Shown here: positions 38,445 through 62,594 of the stretch, piece after piece
Position numbering within the stretch: position 1 is the first letter of the stretch
Layout: each line of letters starts with the position of its first letter
Source: an uncultured Actinomycetes bacterium
GTDB taxonomy: Bacteria; Actinomycetota; UBA4738; HRBIN12
Direction of reading: 5' to 3'
NCBI GenBank assembly: GCA_963713185.1
Contig: CAVQKV010000004.1
Span: 248,416-312,415 of the forward strand
DNA length: 64,000 nt
Notes under the pieces: model-generated
The model's database searches: none
The model's input: the letters and a program-made list of their open reading frames with translations, nothing else
Told to the model about the DNA's origin: nothing
Position numbers and translations under genes: made by a program

Positions 38445-38545
38445 GGGCACCGATCCTAAGGTTGCTGCGGAGGCACAGACCCTAACCGTTGGTGTCATCC
38501 TGTGTCATCTGGTGTCGGCCCTTGTCGTCCGGTGTCGTTCCGTCG
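38445..38545 (-). repeat. att-like repeat copy A: truncated tRNA-Leu fragment plus 10-bp phased repeats
   Basis: gggcaccg-atcctaag gttgctgcgg..aggcac, then tgtcatcctg/tgtcatctgg/tgtcggccct/tgtcgtccgg/tgtcgttccg; homologous to the 58 kb and 62 kb copies. Confidence 0.8.
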
Positions 38546-38569
38546 GAAGTCATGTGAAGCCGGCGCCGC

Positions 38570-41360
38570 TCAACGGGCGGTCTCGGCGAGGGCACGTGCC
38601 GGGGCAACGGCCTGTTGCGCATCGATCACGGTCAACTTCGGTGCGCGTCGCCGGCGGATCCACTTGCTGCCCTCGATGACCAGGGGGAGGACCAGGGCGA
38701 GACCGATGGAGGCGAGCCACTGCGGACCGGTGAGGGACGTGGTCAGCAGGCCGCTCTGGAGATGGGGCAGCTCCGTCGCGAGGAAGAGCAGTGTGACGGG
38801 GACCAGCGAGATCATCACGGCCTTGAGGATCGGGGAGGTGAGCCCGCTGGCCGGGATCACGGCGGTTGGTCAGCGCGTTGAGGACCGTTCCCAGGCCCAT
38901 CACGACGAACGTCATCGTCATGGATGCGCTCGCGTGTTCGGTGCTCGGCTGGTCCGGACCCGCCACGAGGGGGGTCAGGGCGGCCAGGAAGAGGACCGTG
39001 GCATAGAGGACCCAGAAGGCGATCGCCGTCCGGTTGGTGATGGGGACTTTCGGATCCCTCGGGGGTCGGTGCATGACGTCCGGGTCCCCGGGGTCCACGG
39101 CGATGATCACGACGCCGGCCGAGGTCGCGAAGAAGAGCAGGAAGAGCACCATCGAGGGTGTCAGCGCAACCCCTTCGTTGATGTCGAACGTCGTAGCGGC
39201 GAGGAAGAGCATCACGAGCGACAGCAGCTGCGTCATCTGGTACCGGACGTACGAGACGACCTTGTCGTACACGCTTCGGCCGATCTCGACGGCGTGCACG
39301 AGCGTGCCGAAGTTGTCGTCGGTGAGGATCATCCGCGCGGCCTGCTTGGTGACCTCGCTCCCGCTGCCCATCGCCACGCCGATGTCAGCCTGCTTCAGCG
39401 CGGCCGCGTCGTTCACTGCATCGCCGGTCATCGCGACGATCAGGCCCTGCTCCTGCATGGACCGGGCCAGGCGGAGCTTGTCCTCCGGCGAGACCCGGCC
39501 GAAGACGTGGAGCTCGGGAAGCCGGCGGGCGAGCTCGTCATCCGAGAGCGCCTGCAACTCGCTGCCGCTGATCGCGCCCGGTCCCAGCCCGAGCGTCTCG
39601 CCGATCGCCTGGGCGGTCACGGCGTGGTCGCCGGTGATCATCCGGACGTCGATGCCGGCCCCGAGCGCCGTCCGGACCGCGCCCTTCGCCTCGGCGCGGA
39701 GCGGATCGATGATCCCCACCATCCCGACGAAGCCAAGGTCGGTCGTCAGCGACATCGGATCAGCGGCCATCGCCTGCGTCTCGTCCTCCTCGATCAGCCG
39801 GGCCGCGAAGGCGAGCACCCGCAGCCCCTTCTCGCCCATGCGTTCGTTGGCGGCGTCGATGCCGGGACGCGCCTCGTCGATCGGTACCTGTGAGCCGCTG
39901 AGCGGCCCCCCCGACTCGGTGCACCTCGCCAGCACGACGTCGGGGCCCCCCTTGACCAGCTGGATGACGTGCTCCACCCCGTCGACCGGCACCCGGTGGA
40001 AGGTGGCCATGAACTTGTAGTCGGAGTCGAACGGCACCTCGGCGATGCGCGGGTACGCCCGCCGCGTCTCCTCGGCGTCGACGCCGAGCTTGGCCGCCAG
40101 CACCACCAGCGCCGCCTCGGTCGGGTCGCCGACCACCGACCCGTCATCGGCCACGGTGGCGTCGCTGTCCAGGGCGACGCCGAGCGCCAGCCGCGTGAAG
40201 TCGGGCACCGGGAGGCCGGCGACGGACATGATCGCACCGGTCTTGCCGTATCCCTCGCCCTCGACCGTGAACCAGGAGCCGTTCGCATAGATCGTCGAGA
40301 CCATCATCTGGTTCATCGTGAGCGTGCCGGTCTTGTCGGTGTTGATGGCGCTGGTGGCGCCGAGGGTCTCCACGTCGGTGAGGTTCTTGACGACGGCCTT
40401 GGACTCGGCGAGCTGCTTCGCGCCCAGGGAGAGCAGTCCCGCGACGAAGGCCGGGAGGCCCGTCGGGATCGCCGAGATGGCCATCGCCGTGCCGAGCAGC
40501 AGGAGCTCGCTGCCCTGCATGCCGCGTGCCAGCCCGACCACCACGATGTACGCGACCGCGCCCCACGCGATGATGCCGAGGACCTTCGTCAGGGAGTCGA
40601 GCTCCCTCTGCAGCGGCGAGCGGGTCCGCGTGACCGAGGTCAGCATCGTGGCGATCTGACCCATCTGGGTCTGCATCCCGGTGGCGGTCACGACGATCGA
40701 CCCGGTGCCTCTGGTCACCGAGGTGTTCTGGAAGAGCATGTTCGACCGGTCGCCGAGCGCCACGTCCTCGTTCGGCAGGACGCCCGCGTCCTTCGCGACC
40801 GGAGCGCTCTCCCCGGTCAGGGCGGCCTCCTGCGCCTCCAGCGTCGCCGAGTGCGTGATCCGCCCGTCCGCGGGGACGATGTCGCCGGCTTCCAGCTGGA
40901 CGATGTCGCCGGGGACCGCCTCGACGGCCGGGACGAGGGCGACCTCGCCGCCACGCAGCACCCTGGACTGCGGCACCTGCATCTTCGACAGCGCGTCGAC
41001 GCTGGCCCTGGCCTTCAGCTCCTGCCGGGTGCCGAGCACGACGTTGAGGAGGATGAGCAGACCGACGATGACGCCCGTGGGGACCTCGCCGATCGCGAGG
41101 CTCACCACGGTGACCGCCACGAGCATGAGGTTCATCGGGTCGCGCAACTGCTGCAGCGCGATCGCCCACATCGACGGCGGCTTCTCGCCGGTGATCTGGT
41201 TCGGGCCGTGCGCGGAGAGCCGCTTCGCCGCCTCGGCGGCGGTCAGCCCCGTGCTCGCGTCGGACCCCATCGCCGTCACCACATCCGACGCCTCACGGGC
41301 GTAGGGGGGAACCTCCGCCGGATCGGCCGCGCTCACCGCCACCTCGTGCTCGGCGTCCAT
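38570..41360 (-). CDS. Cation-transporting P-type ATPase (P2 type), frameshift near 38860
   Basis: LTGES, DKTGTLT, GDPTE, MITGD, TGDAVNDAAALK, DDNF. Confidence 0.92.
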
Positions 41361-41475
41361 CGCTCCACACCTCCTCACGGATGCGACCCGTGGGGCCTTC
41401 GATATCGGTCCGTCCCCGGGGTGGTCGAGAGGATATCCGCGCCGGCGCCTCACCGGGTCGGCACCGAGCCTCCGC

Positions 41476-41727
41476 TCAGTCCGTGGTTCGATCGCCTGCG
41501 TCTGCCACGGCGGAGATCAACCACTGCACCGCGCCGAAGATGGTTGGATGGATCCTCTCGTCGCCGATCCGATCCAGGACACCGTTCTTGGGAACGATGA
41601 GCGCGACGGCGAGTCCCGCGATGAGATCGCTCTTGAGCCAGCGACGGTCGTAGGAGCGGATCCAGGCGGCCATCGGTACGAGCGGCCATCGGTCCCGCAC
41701 CGGCGCCCCGTGGGCGCTTCGAGTCAT
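41476..41727 (-). pseudogene. SulP anion transporter remnant (N-terminus fused to STAS tail)
   Basis: WIRSYDRRWLKSDLIAGLAVALIVPKN joined directly to GVLDRIGDERIHPTI. Confidence 0.72.
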
Positions 41728-41862
41728 GGGCCGGACGATACCGGACCTGGATGATCGAACCGCCCACGGCACGAGCCACCTCGACGGACGTTCGACCTTT
41801 CGTCGCGCTAGCATCGCTCGACCGACACCGTTTCGGTGTCGACCAGCAGAGGAGCCCGGAGG

Positions 41863-43353
41863 ATGGGCACCATCGTTCCCCGTTGGGAGTGGCGAACCTT
41901 CGGCAGGCACCTTTCCAAGGCACGGGCCGGCTTCGATCGGCTCCAACCGGACCGGGTCGACGAGAGCGACGAGCTGTACCTCCTGCCGGCTTCCGGCGGC
42001 AGCGTCAAGATCCGGAGCGACCTCGTCGACATCAAGGTCCTGCAAGACGTGGATGGAGACGGTCTGGAGCTGTGGAAGCCGGTCATGAAGCAGGGGTTCC
42101 CCCTGTCCGCGGCCGACGTGACCAAGGTGTTCGAAGCGCTCCGGCTCCCCGCCGAACCGGCCCTGCCTGCCGAGTCCCTCGAGGCGCTCCTGGCTGCGCT
42201 TCGCGAGCGACGGGCAGAGATGAGAGCGGTGGAAGTGCACAAGCGTCGTGCGCACTACACCTTCGAGGGCTGCCTGGCCGAAGTCAGCGACGTGGAGGTG
42301 CCCGAGCGCCGAACCTGCTCGATCGCGATCGAGTCGGAAGACCCCGCGGCGGTCCTCGGCGCGATCGCCGCCGCCGGGCTGGTCGGCTACATCAACACCA
42401 GCTATCCGATCGGTCTCGCGGCCCTCATCGACGACGCACCAGAGCGATACGCCGTCATCGACGTGGGGACGAACTCGATCAAGTTCCACGTGGGCGAGCC
42501 GAGCCGTGATGGCTCGTGGCGCACCGTCGTCGATCGCGCCGAGATCACGCTTCTCGGCGAGGGGCTCGCCGAGCGTGGCGCGATCGACGCCGAGGGACTG
42601 GAGCGAACGGCGGCGGCGATCTCTGGGATGGCGGACGAGGCCAGGGCAGAAGGCGCGCATGCCATCGTCGCGGTGGGCACGGCCGGGCTCAGGATGGCGA
42701 GGAACAGCGAGGCCGTGATCGCCGCGATCCACCATCGTGCCGGCGTCACCATCGAGATCATCCCGGGTGGCGAGGAGGCACGGCTCGCCTATCAGGCCGC
42801 GCAGACCTCGCTCGGACGTCCGGCAGGCTCCTCGGTCGTGTTCGACACCGGCGGCGGGAGCACGCAGTTCACGTTCGGCCACGGTTCGGACGTCGATGAG
42901 CGCTTCAGCGTCGACGTGGGCGCCGTGCGCTTGACGGAGCGCTTCGGGCTTGCCGGCGCGGTGACCGAGGACACGCTCCGGGACACGATCGCCGCGATCT
43001 CGACGGACCTCGAAGGGCTCGACGGCCGACCGACCCCCGAGACGATCATCGCGATGGGAGGCGTGGTCACGAACATGACGGCCGTGAAGCACGGGCTGGC
43101 CACGTACGACCCCGACGCCGTGAACGGAGCGGTCCTCGAGGGCTCGGAGATCGACCGGCAGATCGAGCGCTACCGGTCGATGGACGCCGGGGCTCGCCGC
43201 GCCATCGTTGGCCTGCAGCCCAAACGTGCGGAGGTGATCCTGGCCGGCGCGTGCATCGTGCGCATGGTCCTGGAGAAGCTCGGTGGGACCTCGGTCGTGG
43301 TGAGCGATCGCGGCCTTCGCCACGGGGTGCTCGCCGAGCGGTTCGGCAGCTAG
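41863..43353 (+). CDS. Ppx/GppA phosphatase with N-terminal CYTH-like domain
   Basis: IDVGTNS, GTAGLR, EEARL, DTGGGSTQ, GLRHG; extra about 190 aa starting PRWEWRTFG. Confidence 0.82.
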   Translation: MGTIVPRWEWRTFGRHLSKARAGFDRLQPDRVDESDELYLLPASGGSVKIRSDLVDIKVLQDVDGDGLELWKPVMKQGFPLSAADVTKVFEALRLPAEPALPAESLEALLAALRERRAEMRAVEVHKRRAHYTFEGCLAEVSDVEVPERRTCSIAIESEDPAAVLGAIAAAGLVGYINTSYPIGLAALIDDAPERYAVIDVGTNSIKFHVGEPSRDGSWRTVVDRAEITLLGEGLAERGAIDAEGLERTAAAISGMADEARAEGAHAIVAVGTAGLRMARNSEAVIAAIHHRAGVTIEIIPGGEEARLAYQAAQTSLGRPAGSSVVFDTGGGSTQFTFGHGSDVDERFSVDVGAVRLTERFGLAGAVTEDTLRDTIAAISTDLEGLDGRPTPETIIAMGGVVTNMTAVKHGLATYDPDAVNGAVLEGSEIDRQIERYRSMDAGARRAIVGLQPKRAEVILAGACIVRMVLEKLGGTSVVVSDRGLRHGVLAERFGS

Positions 43354-43544
43354 GAGGGCGATCACCATCGACCAGGGAGCCACACCCTGGTTGACTGCTG
43401 ACGAGACGTGGTGACTGGGACGCGTGGCGGGTACCGCGGGGCCTGAACAGGTCGAGGGAGTAAGCGGAGCATGCGATGCCAGAGCGGACGCGGAGTGGCG
43501 TGGGACGCGAGCGGCGCTTGGCACCTCCGGCGCGACGTGGCACG

Positions 43545-44003
43545 ATGTCGCGGGTGACCGGCAGACCCGCCGAGGCGGAGCACCTGCGCGACCTCGCGCG
43601 GCTGCGCCGCGTCCGCGACAGGATCGACCGGGAGTACGCGCAGCCGCTGGACGTCGAGTCGCTCGCGCGCGGCGCGCACATGTCTGCCGGGCACCTCAGC
43701 CGCCAGTTCCGGCTCGCCTTCGACGAGTCGCCGTACAGCTACCTGATGACGCGGCGCATCGAGCGCGCGATGGCGCTGCTGCGTCGTGGCGACCTCAGCG
43801 TCACCGAGGTCTGTTTCGCGGTCGGCTGCTCGTCGCTGGGCACTTTCAGCACTCGCTTCACCGAGCTGGTCGGGATGCCGCCCAGCGACTACCGGCGCCA
43901 CGAGGCGGGCTCGATGGCGGGGATGCCGCCGTGCGTGGCGAAACAGGTGACCAGACCGATCAGGAATCGAGAAGCGCCGCTCCTAGAGCCGCACGTAGCA
44001 TGA
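43545..44003 (+). CDS. AraC family HTH regulator
   Basis: RVRDRIDREYAQPLD, RRIERAMALL, SLGTFSTRF. Confidence 0.9.
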   Translation: MSRVTGRPAEAEHLRDLARLRRVRDRIDREYAQPLDVESLARGAHMSAGHLSRQFRLAFDESPYSYLMTRRIERAMALLRRGDLSVTEVCFAVGCSSLGTFSTRFTELVGMPPSDYRRHEAGSMAGMPPCVAKQVTRPIRNREAPLLEPHVA

Positions 44004-44008
44004 CCGCC

Positions 44009-44419
44009 ATGGACATCACCATCTTCCAGGCCCTCCTCCCGCACGACGACCCCGACGCCTCCCTGGCCTTCTATCGCGATACCCTCGGCTTCGAGGTCCG
44101 CAACGACGTCGAGTACGGCGGGATGCACTGGATCACGGTCGGCCCCGCCGAGCAGCCGGGCACGTCCATCGTCCTGTACCCGCCGGCCGCAGCTCCCGGT
44201 ATCACCGACGACGAGCGTCGCACCATCGCCGAGATGATGGCCAAGGGCACCTACGCCAGCATCAACCTGGCCACCACCGACGTCGACGGCACGTTCGAGC
44301 AGCTGCAGGCCGGCGACGCCGAGGTCGTTCAGGAGCCGACCGACCAACCGTACGGGATCCGCGACTGCGCCTTCCGCGATCCCGCGGGCAACCTGATCCG
44401 CATCCAGGAGCTGCGGTGA
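44009..44419 (+). CDS. VOC/glyoxalase family protein
   Basis: LAFYRDTLGF, QPYGIRDCAFRDPAGN. Confidence 0.9.
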   Translation: MDITIFQALLPHDDPDASLAFYRDTLGFEVRNDVEYGGMHWITVGPAEQPGTSIVLYPPAAAPGITDDERRTIAEMMAKGTYASINLATTDVDGTFEQLQAGDAEVVQEPTDQPYGIRDCAFRDPAGNLIRIQELR

Positions 44420-44485
44420 GCCGTCCGGCGTTCGCACCGGAGGTCAAGCGGCTGGGAACCGTTCGGGGCAAGGAGGTGCTTCGAG

Positions 44486-44956
44486 ATGGCTGAGAGGGAA
44501 GCTGCGAAGAAGAGCACGCAGGGGTCCGCCAAGCGCACCAGTGCGACGAACGAGAAGTTCACGGCCGATGAACGTGCCGCGATGAGGCAGCGTGTCAAAG
44601 AGCTGAAGGCTGTCAAGAACAAGGAGGAATGGGAACGAGAGGTGCTCGCGAAGATCGCCGAGATGCCGGCACGCGATCGCACCTTGGCCGAGCGGTTCCA
44701 CGCCATCGTCAAGGCCAGCGCGCCAGACCTCTCGCCGAAGACCTGGTACGGGATGCCCGCGTACGCCAAGGACGACAAGATCGTCTGCTTCTTCCAAAGC
44801 GCGGCCAAGTTCAACGCGAGGTACGCGAGCTTCGGCTTCAACGACACGGCGAACCTCGACGAGGGCGCCATGTGGCCGACCTCCTTCGCGCTGAAGAAGT
44901 TGACGGCCACCGAGGAGAAGAAGATCGGCGCGCTCGTGAAGAGAGCGGTGCGCTGA
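44486..44956 (+). CDS. DUF1801 (YdhG-like) protein
   Basis: [21 protein letters not shown]; usual AraC-VOC-DUF1801 trio. Confidence 0.85.
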
Positions 44957-45149
44957 GGACCGAGCTCGCAGCTGGGCCCCGCCCTAGGCGTGATCGTCGG
45001 TGGGACGGCCTGAGCGGTCCGGCCTGGCTGCCAGTACGACCAGATGGACGTCAAACCCACGACGTTGATGTGTGGGTGGCCAGAGCCAGAGGGCTCGTTC
45101 TCCCTGGCTGGAGAAGGCGGGAAGGACCCGGCCCACGCGAGCTGATGAA

Positions 45150-45437
45150 CCCGGCAAGATGCCCCCCACCGAGGAGGCGCGGAGCCGAGCGATGGATGAC
45201 TGGCAGCTGTGGTTCGAGGACGTCGGACACGCGGTGAAGGGCATGGGCTTTCCCTTCATGGCCATGGCAAGACACGTGTCCAAGCGAGGCGTGACCGAAC
45301 AGCGTGGAGCGACGACCGGCTACCTCATCGTCGAGGCCGACTCGGTCGAGGAAGTCCTCGACCTCGCCAAGGCGTGCCCGGTCCTCGAGGCGGGAACGAG
45401 GATCACGGTCTTCGAGCCCTTCGCGGTCGACCCCTGA
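45150..45437 (+). pseudogene. YciI-like protein, 5'-truncated
   Basis: TGYLIVEADSVEEVLDLAKACP; typical N-terminal strand is missing. Confidence 0.6.
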
Positions 45438-45469
45438 TCGACGAAGGGACGCCTTCGAGCGCCCGGTCG

Positions 45470-45718
45470 CTAGGACGCTCGCCGAAGGAGCTCTCGGGCG
45501 TGTCTCCACGCGAAGATCGGGACGAACTCGCGAAGCCGAGCACCTGCGAACTCTCCAAGCGCATGCTTGGCCGCTTCGTCGATCCTCTCCTCGGTTTGGT
45601 CCTCGTACTCGCCTGCCAGCTGCTTCTTCAGCCCCGGCAGGGGATCCTTGATGGCCTCTTCCAGTCGGTTACGGCCCCGTGGGCTCATCTGGCTCCCCGA
45701 TCGATCGACCGTCCACAT
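45470..45718 (-). CDS. Small three-helix-bundle (DUF3562-like) protein
   Basis: FAGARLREFVPIFAWRHARE motif. Confidence 0.6.
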   Translation of the reverse strand: MWTVDRSGSQMSPRGRNRLEEAIKDPLPGLKKQLAGEYEDQTEERIDEAAKHALGEFAGARLREFVPIFAWRHARELLRRAS

Positions 45719-45950
45719 GCTCCACCACCGTCGAAACAGCGCAGGTCTTCCGTCCCGATGGTGTTGGGACTCGTCTTCACCCCGTTGGGGGGGATCCTTA
45801 GAAGGCGGTAGGGCCACCGCTCGGCGCCGACTCCGGTGCTCCCAGTGCCCCGGGTAAGCCTCGTCAGGCTGGCTGAGCGGGCTTCTGAACGATGGGTGCT
45901 GGATACGTCTCTGCCGCCGCACCGGTCCCCCCTACGTCTGATGTGCACCG

Positions 45951-46862: not shown

Positions 46863-46968
46863 GCTCTCACGGCGGAAGAGTCCTTCCCATTTCACCGTGG
46901 GGTTCGTCGACGCTCGACGGCCCAGGTAATCGAACCTTGGTAGCTCATCCACGGTCACCATCGACCTG

Positions 46969-53563: not shown

Positions 53564-53672
53564 GTGAGCTCGAGGGTCTCGAGTGCGGGCGCCGGGCCGG
53601 CCCCCACATCCAGGTCACCGCGATGGACGTTCCGACGGACGGCACGACGTTGCCGGGCACGCTCGATGACGA

Positions 53673-55194: not shown

Positions 55195-55342
55195 GACACG
55201 CCCACCGCGCGGTAGCCGTCGCGGTAGAACAGCCGCTCGCACCGCACGGCGCGGGCTGGACCGTCGAACGCGGCAAGGTGCGATTTGACCTAGGGACGTG
55301 GCGATGTGTATGTGAAGGCCTCTTCTGGGAGGAGGGGGGGCC

Positions 55343-56383
55343 ATGCTACGTCGTTCGGTCTTCGTGGTCGGTGCCGTCGTCCTTGTCGCGATCGCTGCCC
55401 TGGCGCCGCCAGCGGCTGCCGTTCCCGCCTATGACTTCGCGACGCCCGTGTTCGGGCTCGCCACGCGGGGCGACTCGCTCCTGGCAGCTGATGCTGGTGC
55501 AGGCATCGTTCGGCTCGGCGCCGACACGGGTAAGCTCGTCGTCGAGCTCCCGGGCGTCACGGACGTGGCGCCGCTGAAAGACGGCCGCATGTGGGCACTA
55601 ACCAGCGCTCCGAAGGATCGCAAGCTGTACCGGGTCGCTGACCGACAGCCCCGCGTCGTCGCGAACCTCGGCAAGTTCGAGCGCACGGTCAATCCCGACG
55701 AAGGTGAGATCGACTCCAACCCCTTCGATCTGGCCAAGCTTCCCCACGGGGAAGTGCTCGTCGCGGACGCCGCCGCGAACGCGCTGTTGATCGCCAACCG
55801 AGAGGGCGACGTGGACTGGGTGGCGACGCTCCCTGATGAGGTGGTCTCCACGGCCAACGCCAAGGCCCTCGTCGGGTGTCCGAACGCAGACCCTGACTTC
55901 GCCGACATCTGCGCGCTGCCCGCGCAGATCCCCGCCCAAGCGGTGACGACGAGTGTGGCCGTGGGACCCGATGGTGCGTACTACCTGACTGAGCTCAAGG
56001 GGTTCCCCGCGCCGCTAGGCGAGTCCCGTGTCTGGCGCATCGAGCCTGGGACTCTGCACGCTCACTGCGACGTTGACGTTACCGATTCGCCGTGTTCCGT
56101 CGTCGCCGACGGGTTTACCTCGATCGTTGACATCAACTTCGCCCCGGACGGCACGGCGTTCGTGGTCGAGCTCGACGAGGCGAGCTGGGCCGCGGTTGAG
56201 ATCGTTCCCGACAAAGCTGCCGGCGGAACGGTGAACGAGTGCAGCTCGACGACCTGGACGTGCACACAGAACGCCACCGCACTGTCGATGCCGACGGCAG
56301 TCGCCGTGAACGACTCTGGAGCGGCGTTCGCGGTGGTCTCTGCGCTGGTTCCAGGTGAGGCGGAGGTGATCGAGCTGAGCTGA
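55343..56383 (+). CDS. ScyD/ScyE family secreted beta-propeller protein
   Basis: DSNPF, VADAAAN, VGPDGAYYLTELKGFP. Confidence 0.8.
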   Translation: MLRRSVFVVGAVVLVAIAALAPPAAAVPAYDFATPVFGLATRGDSLLAADAGAGIVRLGADTGKLVVELPGVTDVAPLKDGRMWALTSAPKDRKLYRVADRQPRVVANLGKFERTVNPDEGEIDSNPFDLAKLPHGEVLVADAAANALLIANREGDVDWVATLPDEVVSTANAKALVGCPNADPDFADICALPAQIPAQAVTTSVAVGPDGAYYLTELKGFPAPLGESRVWRIEPGTLHAHCDVDVTDSPCSVVADGFTSIVDINFAPDGTAFVVELDEASWAAVEIVPDKAAGGTVNECSSTTWTCTQNATALSMPTAVAVNDSGAAFAVVSALVPGEAEVIELS

Positions 56384-56456
56384 CGCATCGCAGTCAGGTA
56401 CCTGCCTGGAGTCTCCCCCCGCCGCCTGGCGCCCGACACCTGTTACCACCAGGTTC

Positions 56457-56780
56457 TCGGGGGAAAACGTCGCGATGGTGCTCGCGCCGATGGTGGCGCT
56501 CGGGGCGGCGCTCCGGCTGTCGCGCTGGCCGCGGTTCGCGCTCGGGATGGGGACCGTCGCGTTCTTCGTCGTGCTCACCGGCGCCGAGCCCTCCGTGATG
56601 CGAGCCGGCGTGATGGCCGGGCTCGCCCTCATCGGCATCCTGCTCGGCCGGCCGAGGAGCACCGGCTCGATCCTGGCCGGCGCGGTCCTGATCCTCCTCG
56701 TGATCGATCCCGCGCTCGTCTGGTCGGTCGAGTTCCAGCTGTCGGTCGCGGCCACCGCAAGCATGGTCGCGCTGGCGAGC
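56457..56780 (+). pseudogene. comEC: comEC internal fragment (Competence domain)
   Basis: SGENVAMV...LTGAEPSVMRAGVM...IDP...FQLSVAAT; both ends missing. Confidence 0.82.
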
Positions 56781-57074
56781 TGGGGTGACCTCGCGGGGAG
56801 TCGTCGGTTCCGGGAATCGGTACAGAGGTGCCTCGCACCTGGGACAGGCGGTCCCGTCCGTCTCGCCGGTTCAGTCACACCGGAGGCGGACCCGCTCGTT
56901 CAGAACGGCCTCCTCGGCCAGTCACGCGGGCATGGCTCGCAGATTCTCGGGCGGAGTCTAGACCGCGGGCTCGCGGTGCGGCGCTGGCTCCCGGTGCGCC
57001 TGGTGGTCGGGTGAGACCCCGAGACCGGCGACACAGTTCCCTTCAGCACGGAGACCGGTGGCTACTTCCGCCGG

Positions 57075-57230
57075 TCACCTGAGGCGGTGCGTGAACCGTC
57101 TACGCGCAATCGGAACAATGAGCACGAGCAGGATGATCGCGGCTGTTACCCCAGCGTGAAGGGCGGGCGGCAACCACATGAACGTCGCGGCGATGAGGAA
57201 CAACGCCACACTCAGCCTGACTCTGAGCAT
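57075..57230 (-). CDS. Possible small membrane protein (one indel)
   Basis: MLRVRLSVALFLIAATFMWLPP then RWVTAAIILLVLIVPIARRRF; GGAGG upstream. Confidence 0.3.
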   Translation of the reverse strand: MLRVRLSVALFLIAATFMWLPPALHAGVTAAIILLVLIVPIARRRFTHRLR

Positions 57231-57280
57231 CACTCCATCCCTCCACCCCTACCCGTCAACTCGGCCCCCGATCCGACATC

Positions 57281-57497
57281 TCACGCGTGGTGGAGCCGCG
57301 CGCGGACAAGGTGGTAGAGCCCGATCAGCAGAGGAATCAGGGCAAACAGCGGAAGTAGCTCGGCGTCGTGTGTACCTTCCCGATTGGTCGTCGCGACGAG
57401 CCACCACATGGCGAGCATCCCGGCAAGAACAAACGCTCCGGCGATGAGCCAGCGAATCCCCTGAGCGCCTCTCTTCTTGAGAGGTTCGAGGCTTCAT
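57281..57497 (-). CDS. Small two-TM membrane protein (one indel just after the start)
   Basis: AGGAGG RBS; GIRWLIAGAFVLAGMLAMWWLV...LLPLFALIPLLIGLYHLVRARL. Confidence 0.45.
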
Positions 57498-57714
57498 GTC
57501 GCCTCCTGTCGACGACTTGCATGTCAACCGTCTGACCACGGATGGCCAGCGGAGAGAGGCCTTCGGCCCGATTGGCGCGGGCCGCCTGTCATGTACGTTC
57601 CGGGAACGTCACCAGCGTCACGCGTCCAGAGTACCGACTTGCCCGCCCGTACACAGGGGATGAGACTAGATTCGGCCTCAGGCTGCGTCGCCCGAACCGA
57701 AAGGAGGTCACCGC

Positions 57715-57993
57715 ATGATCGCGGCCGACATTTCGTTCTGGACCGTCGTTTGGTATGCCTTCGCCGGTCTTGTCATCGGTTTGCTGGCGCGGCTACTCAT
57801 GCCGGGCAGGCAGAACATGAACATCGTCGTGACGATCCTGCTTGGCGTGATCGCCGCTATCGTCGGTGCCTTCTTGTGGAATGCGATCTTCGTGGATCAG
57901 GAGGGTGTCGCGTGGATCGGTGGGATCGTGGTCGCGGTTATCCTTCTCTGGCTCTATTCGCGGTTCGCACCGAAGGCCCGCCGGAGCGAATGA
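57715..57993 (+). CDS. GlsB/YeaQ/YmgE (transglycosylase-associated) membrane protein
   Basis: GLVIGLLARLLMPG...TILLGVIAAIVG; AGGAGG RBS. Confidence 0.85.
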   Translation: MIAADISFWTVVWYAFAGLVIGLLARLLMPGRQNMNIVVTILLGVIAAIVGAFLWNAIFVDQEGVAWIGGIVVAVILLWLYSRFAPKARRSE

Positions 57994-58118
57994 CTCTGCC
58001 TTCGTAGCCTCCCGTTATCGCTCACTCGGGCGACATTCCTGGACGCTCGCCCACGACGACGTTCCCTTTGCGGCCGTGTCATAGCTCGGAAAATGCGGTC
58101 GGATCCGGACGAGCCAGG

Positions 58119-58171
58119 GTGCGAGAGGGGGGAGTCGAACCCCCACGCCCTTGCGGGCACCGGATCCTAAG
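58119..58171 (-). tRNA. tRNA-Leu(TAG) 3'-half fragment (att core, not an intact gene), copy C
   Basis: Minus strand CTTAGGA-TCCGG-T-GCCCGCAAGGGC-GT-GGGGG TTCGACT CCCCC-CTCTCGC-A: anticodon loop, long variable arm, T arm, acceptor 3' strand. No 5' half. Confidence 0.88.
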
Positions 58172-58370
58172 TTTGCTGCGGCCAGGCACGGATCTCGGCT
58201 CTACCTGTCGTCCTATGTCATCTGATGTCGTCCTATGTCATCCGGTGTCGTTCCGTCGTGAGCAAGATGTGAGCAAGAGCCGATGACCGGAGCGCCTTCC
58301 ACGTCTACGTGGAGCAGAATCCGCGGATCGAGAGGGCCGGGTGTGGCAGGGACGAAGATCGTCGCTCAGC
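58172..58370. repeat. att arm: five 10-bp repeats, paired GTGAGCAAG, conserved extension
   Basis: tgtcgtccta/tgtcatctga/tgtcgtccta/tgtcatccgg/tgtcgttccg, gtgagcaag-at-gtgagcaag; homologous to 62397-62594. Confidence 0.85.
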
Positions 58371-58382
58371 GAGAGGGGAACC

Positions 58383-59327
58383 ATGAGTGAGCAGAAGAGC
58401 CTCCACGTCGTCCTCGGGATGGGTCCACTGGGCATCGCCGTGGCCCGCCATCTGACGACTCGAGGAGAACGAGTTCGAGCGGTGAGCCGAACGGGCCGCG
58501 TCCACCTGTCGGAGAGTGTGGAAGTCGTCGCCGCGAACGTCGGGGCGGGGGCCGAAGCGACTCAGGCGTGCGAGGGGGCAGCCGTCGTCTATCACTGTGC
58601 CAACCCGCCGTACGCGAAATGGCGCGAGCTACATCCTCCGCTCATGCAGGCGATCATCGAGGGGGCGGCGGCGGCCGAAGCGAAGCTCGTGTTCGGGGAC
58701 AACCTCTACGCCTACGGCCGGGTGGATGGACCTCTTACCGAGGACATGCCCGACCGGGCCGAGGGCCCCAACGGCCGTACCCGGGCGGAGATCGCGGAGA
58801 AGCTGATGCAGGCTCACGAGTTGGGTCGGATCCGGGCGACGATCGGGCGGGGCTCGGACTTCTTCGGTCCCCACGCGCACCTCTCGACGGTCGGTGACCG
58901 GGTCTTCGCCCGGGCGATGGCGGGGAAGCCGGCACAGGTCCTGGGCAACCCCGATGTCCCGCATACCGTGACCTACATCGACGACTTCGCCCGCGCCCTC
59001 GTGACGCTGGGGGAACGTGACGAAGCCCTGGGACAGGTGTGGCATGTCCCCAACCCCGAGACGGTCACGATGCGCCGGTTCGTTCAAATGGTCTTCGAGG
59101 CGGCTGGCCAGCCTCCCCGCCTGCGAGCGGCGCCGCGGTGGGGGATCGCGTTCGCAGCCCTGTTCAATCCGACCCTACGTGCTGTGAAGGAGCAGCTCTA
59201 TCAGTCCGAGCAACCTTGGGTGGTCGATAGCGGCAAGTTCGAGCGGGCCTTCGGCTGGGAGGCGACGGCGCTCTCCGATGCCGTCGGTATGACGGTCGCC
59301 TGGTTCCACGAGCATCCGAAGGGCTAA
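58383..59327 (+). CDS. NAD-dependent epimerase/dehydratase family protein
   Basis: VVLGMGPLG, ANPPY, DNLYAYG, SDFFGP, TYIDDFA. Confidence 0.88.
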   Translation: MSEQKSLHVVLGMGPLGIAVARHLTTRGERVRAVSRTGRVHLSESVEVVAANVGAGAEATQACEGAAVVYHCANPPYAKWRELHPPLMQAIIEGAAAAEAKLVFGDNLYAYGRVDGPLTEDMPDRAEGPNGRTRAEIAEKLMQAHELGRIRATIGRGSDFFGPHAHLSTVGDRVFARAMAGKPAQVLGNPDVPHTVTYIDDFARALVTLGERDEALGQVWHVPNPETVTMRRFVQMVFEAAGQPPRLRAAPRWGIAFAALFNPTLRAVKEQLYQSEQPWVVDSGKFERAFGWEATALSDAVGMTVAWFHEHPKG

Positions 59328-59611
59328 GGTCAACGCAACGGACGGCTCCTACATCGAAACGTCCCGCGAGAAGCTCGATGCGCACCTAGGGGACTGCTGC
59401 TGGGGCGCACCGTGCATACCTGGCGTACCACGAGCCGTCTGCCCGAGACGCCCGCGTGTGGACCGTCGCGTTCTTCGAGGCCTACCACCTGCTGACTGCT
59501 TGCCCACCGGCCCCTCCAAGGCGGCGGTCCGACATCGTGCCGTCGGATCCCGCGGCGCTTCGCTCACTGGCGGGAGCTATGGTGAGGTCGTCCTCGGGAG
59601 AGGGAGTTGGC

Positions 59612-60079
59612 ATGGCCGGAGGCAAAGCGCGCCTACCACCCCGGTGGTTCGTCGTGACCTTCTGGCACGTGCACCGGCTGTCCGTCCGGGCCACCGGGGG
59701 GCGCAAGGGGTTGTGGCCTCCGCGCCCGGGTAAGTGGGGCGCCCTGCGGCTCACCACGAGGGGCCGGCGCAGCGGCGAGGCGCGGAGCGTGATCGTCGGC
59801 TACTACGAAGACGGGCTCAACCTGGTCTCGATGGCCATGAACGGCTGGGGTGCGGCCGAGCCAGCGTGGTGGCTGAACCTGCAGGCCCATCCGGAGGCGG
59901 TCGTCGAGCTGGCCGGTCGGATCCGGCGCGAGGTGCTCGGGAGGGCGGCGATAGGCGAGGAGCGTGAGCGGCTGTGGCGGCGCTGGAGTGAGCTGGACAA
60001 GAACCTCGACGACTACGCCGCGCGACGCCCACAGGAAACGGCGGTCGTCGTCCTCGAGCCGCGCGTGGTGGCCGAATGA
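59612..60079 (+). CDS. Deazaflavin (F420)-dependent nitroreductase family protein
   Basis: LTTRGRRSG, PAWWLNLQAHP, YAARR...VVVLEP. Confidence 0.85.
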   Translation: MAGGKARLPPRWFVVTFWHVHRLSVRATGGRKGLWPPRPGKWGALRLTTRGRRSGEARSVIVGYYEDGLNLVSMAMNGWGAAEPAWWLNLQAHPEAVVELAGRIRREVLGRAAIGEERERLWRRWSELDKNLDDYAARRPQETAVVVLEPRVVAE

Positions 60080-60285
60080 GCCGGCCGATTTCACGTCGCA
60101 GCCTGACCAGGGGCTGGAGCGCCGTCAGACCGTGATGACCACGTTGCTCCCGTCTGGCTACCTGGTCGGGAAGCGGGACGCAGCCAACGTCAGCGGGATT
60201 CTTGATTCGGGCTGGAGCACCGGCCCAGCAGCTTCCATGACTGATGTCAACCGAGATTCCGCCGGTCAAGGCCCCGTGCGTCCGG

Positions 60286-60307
60286 ATGTGTCCCGCATGT
60301 GTCCCGC
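60286..60307. repeat. Perfect 11-bp tandem repeat ATGTGTCCCGC x2 (arm-site-like)
   Basis: Read directly; intergenic. Confidence 0.7.
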
Positions 60308-60613
60308 GACGGACCGCAAGAACGTGCAAACGGATGTTGACACGAGACACTCATCGCCCACCAAGAGACTTCTGGCCGCTCGGATCACCAACCCCACGCT
60401 GTTCTCAGTCTCAGGAAGGGTAGGCTTCCAGTCTGATCGCGAAGGCGCCATTCGGTGGGACCGCCCTGCGTGCCCCACTCGCCGTGGGGGAGGAGCGTGT
60501 TGATCTCCCAGGCGATCTGGTCCCCCTTCGCGTCCACGACCCTGACGTCGCGGAGGATGTTATCGAGGGCGCGAGCCTCATCGGTGGTCACCTACCACAC
60601 TTGGCCGCTGGTC

Positions 60614-61669
60614 TCAGCCGCCCGCGCCGGCGGCCGAACGCTTGCGCTGCCGCCGACGCCCGTTCCCACTGCTGGTGCCCATCAGCGGCCGAAGGAACCG
60701 GTCGACGGGGAGCCGCGCCTGGCCGCCCATGCGCCGCTCCACCCACGCCCCGATGGCCACCCACAGTCCAACACCGAGCACGATGATCGCCAAGGTGAAC
60801 AGGAAGTAGCCGGCCACGAAGTCGATGTTCTGCTCGTCGAGGAATCTCGAGTACTCCGACATGCCGCCCATCCCTGAGATCACAGCCAGTGGCAGGAAGA
60901 CGACGTTCACGACGGTCAGGCTCTTGATCAGCACGTTCATGTTGTTGTTCACGATGTTGCCCCGAGCATCGAGCAGGCCAGCGAGCACCGTGGTGTAGAT
61001 GTGACCCTGCCGGTCGGCCTGGCCGTTGTCGATCTCCACGTCGTCGAGCAGCTCCAGGTCCTGGGCGGTCAGGCCTACCCGCTCCGCCGCGGCCCGCAGC
61101 TTCGTCAGCACGACCGCGTTGCTCCCGATGGCGTCGGTGTAGTAGATGAGGTCCTCGGTCAGGTCGAACATGCGCACGAGCGCCCGGTTGTCCAGCGTCC
61201 GGTTCAGCTCGGCCTGGAGGTGCCCGGCCACCCGCTTGATCGCCCGCAGTCGCGCGAGGAACTCCTCCACGGTCGCCTGCATCATCCGCAGCACGAGCTC
61301 ACCGGCCGAGTGCGCCTCGCGGATCCTCGAGAAGTCGATGGGCTGGACCTCGTCGGCAACGACGACAGTGAGGCGGCCGGGGTCCAAGAAGATCCCCACC
61401 GAGGACAGCTCGAAACGAGCCGCGTCGACGTCGGCGCGACGGTCGGGCCGCTTCCAGATGATCGTTGCCCGCTCGGTCAGCGGGTCGAATTCGAGCCGCG
61501 AGATCTCCTCCGGGTCCAGGACCGAGTTGAGCGTGTGCTCGTCGATCCCGAGGCCCTCCTGCAGGAGCTGTCGCTCCTCCTTCGTCGGAGCGGAGAAGAC
61601 CGTGATGGGGCCGGTCTCGGGCGTGACCTCGACGAGCGTTCCTTCCTGAAGCTCGAAGTCTGTGCGCAT
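60614..61669 (-). CDS. corA: CorA family magnesium transporter
   Basis: LDPEEISRLE, NNNMNVLIKSLT, two C-terminal TMs with GMGGMSE variant of the GMN loop; upstream M-box. Confidence 0.88.
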   Translation of the reverse strand: MRTDFELQEGTLVEVTPETGPITVFSAPTKEERQLLQEGLGIDEHTLNSVLDPEEISRLEFDPLTERATIIWKRPDRRADVDAARFELSSVGIFLDPGRLTVVVADEVQPIDFSRIREAHSAGELVLRMMQATVEEFLARLRAIKRVAGHLQAELNRTLDNRALVRMFDLTEDLIYYTDAIGSNAVVLTKLRAAAERVGLTAQDLELLDDVEIDNGQADRQGHIYTTVLAGLLDARGNIVNNNMNVLIKSLTVVNVVFLPLAVISGMGGMSEYSRFLDEQNIDFVAGYFLFTLAIIVLGVGLWVAIGAWVERRMGGQARLPVDRFLRPLMGTSSGNGRRRQRKRSAAGAGG

Positions 61670-61771
61670 CGGGGGACCTCCTTCCGTTGACGCGCGCGGA
61701 TGAGCCGAACATGACTGGTCGACCGCTACGCGGACAGAGGCTCCCTCGGGGTCGCGCGGCCCGCGATGCGC

Positions 61772-61867
61772 CTAGGGGCGGATCGGGCGGCGCACGAACC
61801 GATGCGACCGGGGCGTTCTTCGAGGATGGACATGACCACGTAACGGCAGGGGACTTCGGCCGTCCAT
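61772..61867 (-). CDS. Putative Pro/Arg-rich leader peptide (uORF) between M-box and corA
   Basis: GGAAGGAGGGGT-ATG; MDGRSPLPLRGHVHPRRTPRSHRFVRRPIRP*. Confidence 0.3.
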   Translation of the reverse strand: MDGRSPLPLRGHVHPRRTPRSHRFVRRPIRP

Positions 61868-61959
61868 ACCCCTCCTTCCCGGCCCATCCTCCGCACCTGA
61901 GGCAGGGGTGTACGCCCGCAGGCCATCCGGGCTCGTCGGGACCAGGTCTCGACGCATCC

Positions 61960-62120
61960 CCCACTCGTAAGAGCTTTGGCGCCACACGGCGTAGATCCCT
62001 CTCGGGACCAGCTGCCTGGGGTCAACCCTTATGTCGGGCAGACCTGTCCTGATCCGGAGCGTCTCTCGACGGGCGGGATCAGCAGCCTTTGTCCGTGCGG
62101 TTGCCTCACCGAACGAGGTG
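61960..62120 (-). ncRNA. M-box (ykoK) Mg2+ riboswitch
   Basis: Minus strand CTCGTTcGGTGAGGC...GCTGCTG...GTCGAGAGACGC...ACAGG...CGACATAAGG...GCAGCTGG...TACGCCGTGTGG.GCCAAAGCTCTTACGAG matches ykoK conserved blocks in order; upstream of corA. Confidence 0.9.
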
Positions 62121-62183
62121 CGACTTCGCATCCGGAGTATTGGCGCCTGAGCCGGACGCGTCAACCGTCGCCGACCGCGCGTG

Positions 62184-62343
62184 AGTCGTCTGGTGTCGTC
62201 CTGTGTCACCCGGTGTCGTCCCGTGTCACCCGGTGTCGGGCCGATGTGCCCGGGTCTCGCGTCTGTGAGCAAGTGTGAGCAAGACGGCATCCTCGGCCAG
62301 TCGCTCGACAGGGTCAAGAACGAAGATCCGCAGGTCAGAGGGA
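62184..62343. repeat. att left arm: six 10-bp repeats, paired GTGAGCAAG, GATCCGCAGGTCAG
   Basis: agtcgtctgg/tgtcgtcctg/tgtcacccgg/tgtcgtcccg/tgtcacccgg/tgtcgggccg; gtgagcaag-t-gtgagcaag. Confidence 0.82.
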
Positions 62344-62396
62344 GTGCGAGAGGGGAGAGTCGAACTCCCACGCCCTTGCGGGCACCGGATCCTAAG
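62344..62396 (-). tRNA. tRNA-Leu(TAG) 3'-half fragment (att core), copy D
   Basis: CTTAGGA-TCCGG-T-GCCCGCAAGGGC-GT-GGGAG TTCGACT CTCCC-CTCTCGC-A; no 5' half. Confidence 0.88.
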
Positions 62397-62594
62397 GTTG
62401 CTGCGGCCAGGCACGGATGCCGGCTGCACGTGTCGTCCTGTGTCGTCCCGTGTCGTCAGGTATCCGTGGTGTCGTCCCGTCGTGAGCAAGCGGTGAGCAA
62501 GTGCCGATGAGCGGAGCGCCATCCTCGTCTACGGGAAGCAGAATCCGGGCATCGCTAGGGGTGGGTAGCGCAGGCCCTGGAAGCGTCGCTGAGC
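62397..62594. repeat. att right arm: 10-bp repeats, paired GTGAGCAAG, conserved extension
   Basis: tgtcgtcctg/tgtcgtcccg/tgtcgtcagg/tatccgtgg/tgtcgtcccg, gtgagcaag-cg-gtgagcaag; homologous to 58172-58370. Confidence 0.85.

Follow-up and report, generated by a model that had tools for sequence, protein, structure and literature searches.

A tandem array of integrase-less segments at tRNA-Leu(TAG) 3' halves in an uncultured class of Actinomycetota

Results

Accessory-gene segments lie in tandem downstream of tRNA-Leu(TAG)

The window is a 64,000-nucleotide stretch of contig C4 in genome G000. From position 38445 onward it holds accessory genes in segments that are set apart by short junctions. 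Segment A (12.1 kb; 38546-50677, genes on both strands) carries, by Pfam, a P-type ATPase (minus strand), Ppx/GppA, an AraC-type regulator, one unknown gene, YCII, a BNR-like protein, a HAD hydrolase and GH65, and its gap ORFs contained no recombinase. Segment B (7.4 kb; 50758-58118, mixed strands) encodes an M1-like peptidase, an SDR and an F420-type oxidoreductase (both minus strand), one unknown, a ComEC fragment and a small membrane ORF. Segment C (3.8 kb; 58341-62184, mixed) has members of the NAD-epimerase and F420H2-dependent quinone reductase families and a minus-strand CorA, with an M-box riboswitch ahead of it (61953-62124, minus strand; Rfam). Segment D begins at 62593 and runs past the end of the window at 64000 to window-equivalent position 68265; it holds a dienelactone hydrolase and an SRPBCC/polyketide-cyclase-like protein (both minus strand) in the window and an ABC-2 transporter pair and an M19 peptidase fragment beyond. 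Gene orientation is thus mixed, and segments bring regulators of their own, such as the M-box. The Pfam and Rfam assignments agree with the sequence-only reading, an earlier interpretation that had listed the P-type ATPase, Ppx, GH65, the M1-like peptidase, the oxidoreductases and CorA with its M-box as cargo.

ARAGORN, run on the whole genome, found no tRNA gene within the window and a single tRNA-Leu(TAG), on the minus strand at C4:340254-340337 (window-equivalent 91839-91922). This intact gene lies 27.8 kb right of the window, on the side and in the orientation that had been predicted. BLAST with the tRNA returned copies of 53-54 nt matching its positions 31/32-84, at 58119-58172 (96.3% identity) and 62344-62396 (96.2%) inside the window and at 68366-68418 and 80719-80771 (98.1% each) to its right. 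Between 38445 and the intact tRNA we therefore count four such 3' halves and two decayed ones (50704 and 38445), all on one strand, co-oriented and downstream of the intact gene. The four co-oriented remnants claimed for the window were confirmed by BLAST and flank matches, and two more lie outside it. The array extends over at least 53 kb, and its distal two-thirds fall within the window. In all junction rows, tRNA identity stops at the 5' edge of the anticodon loop, CTTAGGA, and this one boundary shared by the displaced halves supports the earlier suggestion of repeated site-specific integration at the loop.

Where the tRNA half ends, an arm of about 112 nt follows (the P arm), in which a GCCAGGCAC box is accompanied by five phased repeats of 10 bp (GTGTCGTCC type) and by GTGAGCAAG in two copies. 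The join from core to flank, CACCGGATCCTAAGKTTGCTGCGG, occurs twice in the window, versus 0 times in 100 shuffles. Tandem Repeats Finder placed 10-bp arrays at 38491-38538 (4.8 copies), 58206-58249 (4.4), 62185-62238 (5.4) and 62429-62457 (2.9), and GTGAGCAAG pairs at 58258 and 62264. The junctions, all on the minus strand, differ in completeness. J62 (62185-62592; nhmmer E 8.8e-84) is a complete attP-like junction of the form P'-core-P, with a P' side (62185-62343) of 10-bp repeats, two GTGAGCAAG repeats and the tail GATCCGCAGGTCAGAGGG, a core made of the 53-nt tRNA 3' half (62344-62396), and a P arm from 62397 to about 62592. J58 (58119-58340; E 4.6e-74) combines the 54-nt half at 58119-58172 with a full P arm (GTTTGCTGCGGCCAGGCAC, the 10-bp repeats, and GTGAGCAAG at 58258 and 58269), and its P' side has no GTGAGCAAG pair. 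In J50 (50678-50757) just the tail motif GATCCGCAGGTCGGAGAGG and a 16-nt T-arm stretch (50704-50719) survive, the remaining core and most of the P arm being deleted; to its right the sequence continues the distal P arm of an intact junction in genome G022 (C6:17176) at 93.4% identity, and it was through this homology that J50 was identified. J38, the most distal (38445-38545; E 3.7e-16), consists of a 16-nt core remnant, GGGCACCGATCCTAAG (38445-38460), that spans the anticodon loop and the 3' stem strand, followed directly by the shared flank and a P arm in which the 10-bp repeat occurs 4.8 times and the GTGAGCAAG pair has decayed; its left flank bears no relation to the tRNA.

A junction profile scanned against the whole genome with nhmmer matched only J58, J62, J68, J80, J38, the intact tRNA, a 10-bp repeat block at 62193-62243 that sits inside the P' arm of J62 and, weakly, tRNA-Leu(CAG). 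Scores were 321 for J68, 281 for J62, 249 for J58 and 59 for J38, and J50 was too decayed to be detected in that scan; the claimed leftward decay of the copies is thus roughly borne out, with more decay further from the tRNA. The intact tRNA itself is followed by neither tail nor P' motif in G000 and in G020. As had been proposed, each junction looks, from its sequence, like an attP site, with a tRNA half that starts at the anticodon loop and then an arm with repeats. That the junctions are instead a repeated functional module (a tRNA-like RNA, a promoter or an insulator) or a duplicated local repeat is very improbable. Such a role would fit the conservation of the P arm described below and the cassette gene that starts just after an arm (58341/58385), but the copies occur only in tandem, co-oriented and downstream of the very tRNA whose 3' half they hold, their identity boundary falls at the anticodon loop, genes after the arm run in either direction, and the M-box is the sole Rfam match in window positions 24000-64000.

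The P arm is conserved across genera

We searched related genomes with the 172-nt P arm as query, free of any tRNA sequence. It matched 48 of 294 genomes of the order and class (43/222 in the family; 15 of 78 genera), and a repeat search returned the same 48, four of which are unpublished (G086, G062, G063 and G049). All genomes are MAGs, G000 being 73% complete. The 14 genomes with mapped arrays all have them 3' of tRNA-Leu. On the 5' side a YkuD gene lies in all five whose flank was annotated (G000, G003, G107, G219 and G235), and in G020 an integrase gene takes that place. Together these arrays contain 29 fully bounded segments of 1.5-14.6 kb (median 3.7 kb), every one with att cores on both sides.

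Across 29 junction rows, conservation reaches 90% or more in the repeat columns and falls away sharply past the second GTGAGCAAG. P arms of different genera share 69-73% identity (maximum 85%), as against 53-55% nucleotide identity, and 43-50% at third positions, for the adjacent YkuD gene; judged by these identities, the P arm is far better conserved than its coding neighbor. Arms of G000 resemble one another no more closely than they do those of G003 (mean likeness 0.83 within G000 versus 0.88 for G000-G003). The two sides of the junction fare differently: the P arm is nearly always present, the P' motif in about half of the junctions, and the P'-side GTGAGCAAG pair is missing from many internal junctions, so many cassettes are without two intact arms.

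The arrays encode no intact integrase

Pfam detected no integrase, relaxase or phage domain in 41 called genes and 209 gap ORFs, as the sequence-only reading had claimed. It had also pointed to the DNA beyond 64000 for an intact tRNA-Leu(TAG) with an integrase gene nearby; the tRNA is there, but a six-frame search for PF00589 gave four matches in the G000 genome and none on C4. No segment in this genome yielded an integrase domain in the six-frame search or in Pfam runs on its ORFs, and none of the three outcomes that the sequence-only reading had named as refuting arose for this genome. AICE, prophage and PICI were rejected as identities for the array, in which Pfam found no Rep, FtsK-like Tra or capsid/terminase genes.

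The same holds for the relatives. Of the 44 published genomes with the arm, 43 had all their PF00589 matches listed, and none of these 43 has an intact integrase inside its array. In nine arm-bearing genomes the only PF00589 matches are two that are both XerC/D-like, and four of the nine (G013, G028, G089 and G109) are at least 91% complete; a search of G003, G013 and G028 for serine recombinases found none. Pfam found no recombinase or integrase among the genes of the 29 bounded segments, and no relaxase, FtsK/Tra or Rep gene in the annotated arrays. Outside the genome set, the GTGAGCAAG pair, scanned for in IMG/VR, turned up on 69 contigs that all lack the tRNA core; BLAST against PLSDB and phages gave only matches of tRNA length; and a custom HMM found no integrase at 41 genome-contig loci with the arm pattern, at least six of which are filed under other organisms and probably match by chance. 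None of the sequence sets searched tied an integrase to the arms. The sequence-only reading had proposed one integrase acting in trans and adding cassettes repeatedly: the repeated additions stand, but no trans-acting integrase was found, so that part of the proposal is still conjecture.

Integrase remnants do occur in two arrays. Contig C6 of G022 begins with a 153-aa fragment of the catalytic domain, and in a metagenome contig an integrase fragment of the G022 type adjoins tail and core. The G036 remnant is a pseudogene, interrupted by one frameshift and one TGA, whose end directly abuts a 16-nt piece of core that leads into a P arm. At least some units, then, once had an integrase; no remnants of conjugation genes accompany the two. 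On the 5' side of tRNA-Leu, an integrase gene in G020, a fragment in G106 and a further case in the unpublished G142 are unrelated.

Other tRNAs of G000 carry similar islets. Displaced 3' halves occur at at least 11 of them and bound integrase-less islets, the one at tRNA-Gly with a phage-capsid fragment, while the genome has only one full-length non-Xer integrase; integrase loss after integration must therefore be common in this lineage. With the remnants in G022 and G036, these islets make ordinary decay a serious rival, in which the segments arrived as autonomous islands (AICE, IME, prophage or satellite) whose integrases and mobility genes were removed by the deletion bias of small genomes, leaving a CIME graveyard. 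The rise of junction decay with distance from the tRNA and the fusion of two former cassettes in segment B also fit, and the literature, in the sections drawn on here, offers parallels: a three-step route from ICE or IME to CIME to accretion (PMC5704250), and Tycheposon islands with partial tRNAs and fragmented integrases (bioRxiv 10.1101/2020.12.28.424599). Against it, 29 segments and the arrays of 43 genomes contain no intact integrase, whereas the same MAGs keep full-length integrases beside other tRNAs (71/223 genomes match one query and 50/223 another). Units of only 1.5-2.0 kb still retain a full P arm, and a graveyard does not predict an arm conserved above its coding neighbor across genera. 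We consider such decay a real but rather unlikely explanation.

Cassette content and order change between genomes

Relatives differ in which genes the arrays hold and in how these are ordered. Two blocks are 93.4-93.5% identical between G000 and G022, where the backbone flank shows 77% protein identity, and they stand in reversed order relative to the tRNA; segment B of G000 consists of these two blocks fused, which in G022 are separate cassettes. G000 and G003 share an APH gene at 98.2% identity, versus 80% for YkuD; it belongs to a 1.06-kb patch of that identity inside otherwise unrelated cassettes. G022 also has an MCO block whose orientation to the att sites is inverted. The displaced halves carry the tRNA variant of the host itself (identity to the resident tRNA is 100% and 98% in G106), with two exceptions that carry a foreign variant, G107 C7:132684 and an orphan in G235.

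This turnover could instead reflect a static array, in which a few ancient integrations left junction repeats of about 300 bp that now serve only as homology anchors: cassettes would be gained, lost and reordered between strains and species by homologous recombination after DNA uptake or conjugation, with no present role for an integrase. The APH patch and the inverted MCO block are exchanges not bounded by att sites, and several near-complete genomes with arrays have no candidate integrase, both as expected of homologous recombination. It leaves unexplained, however, why conservation peaks in the repeat motifs and not in the spacers or the distal arm, which vary, why the halves track the host's own tRNA variant, and why a 16-nt loop-plus-stem sits beside a P arm in two independent genomes. 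To judge by their sequences, the 16-nt-core junctions look like recombinase-made joins at secondary sites. We regard a static array as improbable.

Discussion

We conclude, with a probability of roughly 0.55, that the region is a tandem accretion array of CIME-like cassettes formed by tyrosine-type recombination, with an integrase probably acting in trans. Repeated recombination of the tyrosine-integrase type downstream of tRNA-Leu(TAG), with crossover in the anticodon loop, would have built the array. An incoming circle would bring an attP in which the tRNA 3' half lies between the P arm and a short downstream tail. Its integration would restore the tRNA and shove the older 3' half and all earlier units away from the gene, leaving P'-core-P junctions between units. 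Older junctions would then decay by point mutation and deletion, as in J58, J50 and J38. The units lack an integrase and are CIME-like cassettes between att sites, with anything from one to some ten accessory genes of ordinary kinds, and the P arm would be a putative binding platform for the arm domain of the integrase and for an accessory or directionality protein. Since the arrays encode no cognate integrase, we infer that it is supplied in trans, perhaps by a rarer, unsampled element; the cassettes probably depend on such a supply, and may be mobile today. Several observations weigh against this reading: the searches tied no integrase to the arms, integrase remnants sit in two arrays, integrase loss recurs at other tRNAs of G000, many internal junctions are without the P'-side GTGAGCAAG pair, the intact tRNA of G000 and of G020 leads into neither tail nor P' motif, and every genome is a MAG.

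A bolder reading, which we offer tentatively, is that this uncultured class keeps an integron-like exchange of cassettes that uses tRNA attP sites. Circles of one or a few genes, bearing only the tRNA-Leu 3' half and the arm of about 112 nt, would be inserted and excised at the anticodon loop by an integrase absent from the cassettes and from most hosts. The array would then be a shared, reshufflable store, with others perhaps at many tRNAs.

The arrays are the main variable region beside this tRNA in an abundant, uncultured actinobacterial lineage of soil and sediment, and island finders that depend on integrases would miss them entirely. The conserved arm repeats offer a probe for fishing the integrase from unbinned metagenome fractions. 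Should the arrays be graveyards after all, integrase loss must have been unusually fast and clean while the arms stayed conserved, a contrast that would itself need explaining.

Among known systems, CIMEs (cis-mobilizable elements) are described in the sections of PMC5704250 used here as elements that keep att sites, have lost or lack integration and transfer genes, and lie in tandem at tRNA 3' ends, where new arrivals integrate beside them; the Streptococcus ICESt1 family and Streptomyces pathogenicity islands are cited. The array units resemble that description in their att sites, their lack of integration and transfer genes and their tandem placement by a tRNA 3' end. They differ from it in numbering up to six or seven with no functional partner element, in that a unit can be a single gene, and in an arm conserved across a whole uncultured class. 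CIMEs descend from ICEs and IMEs by decay and are mobilised by, or along with, a functional element that has integrated next to them; here there are two integrase remnants (G022 and G036), but Pfam found no relaxase, FtsK/Tra or Rep.

The Islander islands share the co-oriented displaced 3' tDNA fragment downstream of a regenerated tRNA and a crossover centered on the anticodon, a type to which 2083 of 3919 islands belong according to the portion of PMC4383910 drawn on here. That survey required an integrase gene per island and reported arrays of three or more in only four cases. Because each Islander island carries an integrase gene and the segments here carry none, this array would be filtered out.

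Tycheposon islands of Prochlorococcus lie beside tRNAs and grow by pushing older elements inward, with scattered partial tRNAs, degraded elements and niche-adaptive cargo (bioRxiv 10.1101/2020.12.28.424599, in the part relied on here). The array shares this tRNA-adjacent growth and the displacement of older units. Tycheposons, however, encode their own tyrosine recombinase (937 integrase-carrying elements), along with replication or packaging modules; no such recombinase was found in the array, and we rejected that identity. In our searches no member with these arms encoded an integrase, and between the units complete attP-like junctions have been kept.

The likeness to integrons is one of function only: small cassettes in an ordered row, which have a recombination site apiece but encode no recombinase, entering at one primary site. 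The array has no adjacent intI, attI or Pc and no attC, the imperfect palindrome that is folded as a single strand; its sites are of the double-stranded attP type with arm repeats. Integron cassettes are mostly promoterless, co-oriented ORFs, whereas orientation here is mixed and an M-box is present. With no PF00589 in the array or beside the G000 tRNA and junctions that are attP-like tRNA halves, we rejected an integron as such, and the earlier label 'integron-like' survives as a functional analogy. If the cassettes are mobilised in trans, bacteria would have, alongside integrons, a second means of holding an ordered store of small cassettes open to exchange.

The array continues to an intact tRNA-Leu(TAG) right of the window

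The window spans C4:248416-312415 in the source genome (G000; 2.08 Mb in 10 contigs, ~70% G+C, 73% complete). As judged by ARAGORN, this genome has no tRNA gene within the window and a single tRNA-Leu(TAG) 27.8 kb past its right end, on the minus strand at window-equivalent 91839-91922. An intact gene on that side had been predicted from the sequence-only reading. BLAST recovered four copies of the tRNA 3' half, each on the same strand as the intact tRNA and covering tRNA positions 31/32-84 at 96-98% identity, two of them in the window (58119-58172 and 62344-62396) and two outside it (68366-68418 and 80719-80771). Two further copies are decayed: at junction J50 the T arm alone is left (50704-50719), and at J38 there remain 16 nt comprising the loop and the 3' strand of the anticodon stem (38445-38460). 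When the whole genome was scanned with a junction profile, the matches beyond the junctions themselves were the intact tRNA, the 10-bp repeat block on the left side (P') of J62 (62193-62243) and, weakly, tRNA-Leu(CAG). The join of core to flank occurred in 0 of 100 shuffles. Thus, the four tRNA remnants, shared flank and 10-bp repeats first noticed in the window are real, and the array itself is larger than could be seen there, with six segments of 12.1, 7.4, 4.2, 6.0, 12.3 and 11.1 kb.

The cargo of these segments consists of ordinary accessory metabolism, transport and signalling genes, including CorA behind an M-box. The M-box riboswitch (129 bits) lies upstream of CorA at 60614-62124 on the minus strand, with regulator and gene sharing one 3.8-kb cassette. 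The tRNA-proximal segment (window-equivalent 80772-91838; L005/L006) has a normal right arm (P) at its distal end and neither tail nor P' motif beside the intact tRNA; a small membrane-protein ORF stops 11 nt from that tRNA, and no 3'-end-type att repeat was found in the segment. At the other end, ~12 kb of G000-specific DNA (26192-38444) separates J38 from a flank conserved with relatives G003 and G022 (PEMT, 25682-26191), and carries beta-lactamase-family, HSP20, split HD-domain and truncated class-V aminotransferase genes. With no att remnant recognisable in it, this stretch may be older, fully decayed array.

Junctions resemble attP and bear signs of past activity

Described on the plus strand, on which the tRNA reads leftward, a full junction has a core formed by the 53-nt tRNA 3' half between P' and P. 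The P' side is loosely conserved, with a GTGAGCAAG pair ~57 nt from the tRNA end plus a tail, GATCCGCAGGTCAGAGGG. The P arm carries, in order, GTTGCTGCGGCCAGGCAC, five GTGTCGTCC-type repeats spaced 10 bp apart and CGTCGTGAGCAAG-NN-GTGAGCAAG. In every junction, and in all genomes examined, tRNA identity ends at the 5' edge of the anticodon loop, a break that is the signature of tyrosine integrases with crossover at this position. At about ±110 bp, the direct repeats are reminiscent of the arm-type and accessory-protein sites of attP. Xer-mediated (IMEX-like) integration was considered and set aside, as the core appears to lack arms resembling those of dif consensus sequences.

Several observations indicate that the system was once active and that the arm matters. 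Repeat columns are at least 90% conserved over 29 junction rows, with conservation stopping past the second GTGAGCAAG, and the P arm is 69-73% identical between genera, compared with 53-55% for the adjacent YkuD gene, whose third positions are saturated. J50 is a deleted form of an intact G022 junction. The halves match the host's own tRNA variant (for instance, 100% and 98% in G106), as expected if each was formerly the resident 3' half; in two cases, the variant is a foreign one. Cargo is patchily common to genomes at identities above that of the backbone: two blocks, one with the peptidase and one with SDR/F420 genes, are 93.4-93.5% identical between G000 and G022 and stand in opposite array order, and an APH gene is 98.2% identical between G000 and G003. 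Cargo order and content thus vary among relatives. This APH-family phosphotransferase is the sole gene of a 1.06-kb patch (window-equivalent 73491-74546, L005:9491-10546; G003 C1:723418-724472) that sits within otherwise unrelated cassettes, without att-site boundaries, in two species with ~80% backbone identity.

We also compared Logan contigs of four sequencing runs over 44001-64000, not counting uncovered stretches as absence (runs X3 and X5 lack cover over, for example, 44-50.6 kb). One X5 contig, in which a J62-like core is joined to a tRNA 5' half, was considered as an alternative cassette order and rejected, the 5' half being of another variant; it may be no more than the tRNA of a relative together with the adjoining P' side.

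Similar arrays occur in relatives

The P arm alone was matched in 48 of 294 genomes (44 published, four unpublished), corresponding to 43 of the 222 family members and to 15 of 78 genera. Order and class cover an identical set of 294 species genomes in the collection, and a class-level search added none. We mapped arrays in 14 genomes, and wherever the fetched stretch included the intact gene they lay directly 3' of tRNA-Leu(TAG). On its 5' side, a conserved YkuD gene is found in G000, G003, G107, G219 and G235, and is replaced by an integrase or integrase fragment in G020 and G106. Fully bounded segments (n = 29) range from 1.5 to 14.6 kb in length (median, 3.7 kb).

Recurrent cargo in eight genomes (G000, G013, G014, G036, G105, G106, G107 and G219) includes adenylate/guanylate cyclases fused to AAA_16/STAND or hydrolase domains, along with sigma factor pairs, PD40, SRPBCC and DUF4386. 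Individual arrays have their own peculiarities. The tRNA-Leu-adjacent cassette of G031 (L043:5501-8860) encodes a paralogue of leucyl-tRNA synthetase and an acetyltransferase of the Antibiotic_NAT family; in G020, the tRNA-proximal segment (L039:10446-16940) is taken up by an RHS/YD-repeat protein of 2164 aa; and one G054 cassette (L033:9300-14861) was invaded by a Mu-type transposase and by the reverse transcriptase/maturase of a group II intron. In G235, a tRNA-Leu half that has a P arm is an orphan (C7:1286283-1286445; L049), remote from the tRNA-Leu gene and beside era, ybeY and phoH; this half is the tRNA variant of another genus and adjoins a truncated SRPBCC gene.

No intact integrase was found in the arrays

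The absence of integrase, relaxase and phage genes from the array, claimed on first inspection, was upheld. Six-frame searches with PF00589, reading through stops, gave four matches in G000, none on the array's contig, C4. Over 36-96 kb, neither the 41 called genes nor 209 ORFs from the gaps yielded a recombinase, relaxase or phage domain in Pfam; eight ORFs crossing locus borders fell outside this set. Matches of G036 integrase pieces to G000 by tblastn were restricted to C1, C2 and C8.

Across relatives, no integrase was found by Pfam within bounded segments (108 + 74 genes of mapped loci), and no intact integrase lay inside any array among the PF00589 matches listed, which cover 43 of the 44 published arm-bearing genomes fully and leave out one match in the remaining genome, G020. 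In nine arm-bearing genomes, four of them 91-96% complete (G013, G028, G089 and G109), the PF00589 matches amount to two XerC/D-like genes and no more. Serine recombinases are absent from G003, G013 and G028. A candidate in a G054 cassette, picked up by our own HMM (L033:1384-2322, minus strand), lies on the strand opposite a cyclase gene, is unmatched in Pfam and was dismissed as spurious.

Beside the tRNA, G020 encodes a 254-aa tyrosine recombinase 67 bp upstream, opposite the array, and the unpublished G142, a genome without an array, has a singleton integrase immediately upstream of its tRNA-Leu(TAG). No 5'-half duplicates were present upstream of tRNA-Leu in G020, G106 or G142 within the windows fetched.

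Searches further afield gave no cognate integrase. Phage and plasmid records returned only tRNA-length BLAST matches to a 311-nt junction. IMG/VR contigs with the GTGAGCAAG pair (n = 69, mostly low-GC) included none with the tRNA core or 10-bp repeats and were taken as unrelated or chance matches. Scanning genome_contigs for the P-arm pattern yielded 41 loci, mostly titled as uncultured Actinomycetota/Actinomycetes MAGs, none of which held an integrase by our HMM; at least six (under names such as Caldimonas, Rheinheimera and Mycobacterium) are probably chance matches.

Integrase remnants persist at some junctions

Contig C6 of G022 begins with a 153-aa integrase fragment, and on an X3 contig this same fragment stops 13 nt from tail and core. 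G036 retains a pseudogenized integrase bearing a single frameshift and a single TGA; GGCATCGGATCCTAAG directly adjoins its stop codon, and a full P arm comes next. J38 of G000 shares its 16-nt-only core with G036; DNA to the left of these remnants resembles a decayed tRNA half no better than shuffles do (339 and 376 of 500, respectively, reach the observed score). Such junctions would have been made by a recombinase, through joining at secondary sites or through deletion.

Neither family-wide nor metagenome searches turned up close relatives of the remnant integrases. The best family-wide matches to the G022, G036 and G142 integrases were 47-53% identical and lay beside other tRNAs, giving no conserved 'platform' integrase. 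In metagenomes, the closest relative of the G022 fragment was 52% identical, and the 80 loci matched adjoin tRNA-Ser, Thr, Met, Arg and others, with one at tRNA-Leu(TAG) and arm motifs at none.

Displaced 3' halves are also found in G000 at at least 11 other tRNAs: Asp, SeC (two), Glu, Gly, Val, Lys, Ala (two), Arg (two) and Asn. They lie downstream of tRNA genes on C1, C2, C4, C7 and C8 (L253-L259), for example at C1:287589, C1:308221, C7:347901, C7:352738 and C2:152672. Each islet family has its own repeat-bearing arm, with almost no integrases left. The tRNA-SeC arm has three GGACAAGTCTTC repeats, tRNA-Glu and tRNA-Gly islets have a common arm, CTGAGCAGGG occurs at Asp, Glu, Gly and Asn islets, and the tRNA-Gly islet contains a phage-capsid fragment. 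A 5'-type island is present at C2:23691-30541 (L255), where a 255-aa short tyrosine recombinase sits beside tRNA-Gln(CTG), positions 1-37 of which are duplicated 6.8 kb upstream; tRNA-Ser(TGA) likewise has a 5'-half duplicate on its upstream side, at C7:252209.

The remnants in G022 and G036, the 16-nt cores and the other tRNA islets argue against a reading in which these units purely never had an integrase. The main rival, that the array reflects the decay of once-autonomous islands, has these remnants on one side and the integrase-free bounded segments on the other, and we consider it less likely than the reading favoured here. Most likely, with a probability of roughly 0.55, this is an accretion array of CIME-like cassettes (CIMEs being cis-mobilizable elements that keep their att sites), built in trans by a tyrosine integrase that escaped sampling.

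Comparison with known systems

The sequence-only interpretation of integrase-less cassettes added in trans is supported in part: its cognate integrase was not found, and the likeness to an integron is an analogy of function, the array showing none of that system's defining features. Our literature search, which did not extend to supplementary files, did not turn up any account of such arrays from Actinomycetota, which is not proof that none exists. Islander has only 4 arrays of three or more, with every member carrying its own integrase (PMC4383910). The structure fits the published CIME and accretion scheme (PMC5704250) and resembles the tRNA-proximal islands built by tycheposons (bioRxiv 10.1101/2020.12.28.424599). 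The array differs in the number of stacked integrase-less units, their small size and the class-wide conservation of the arm.
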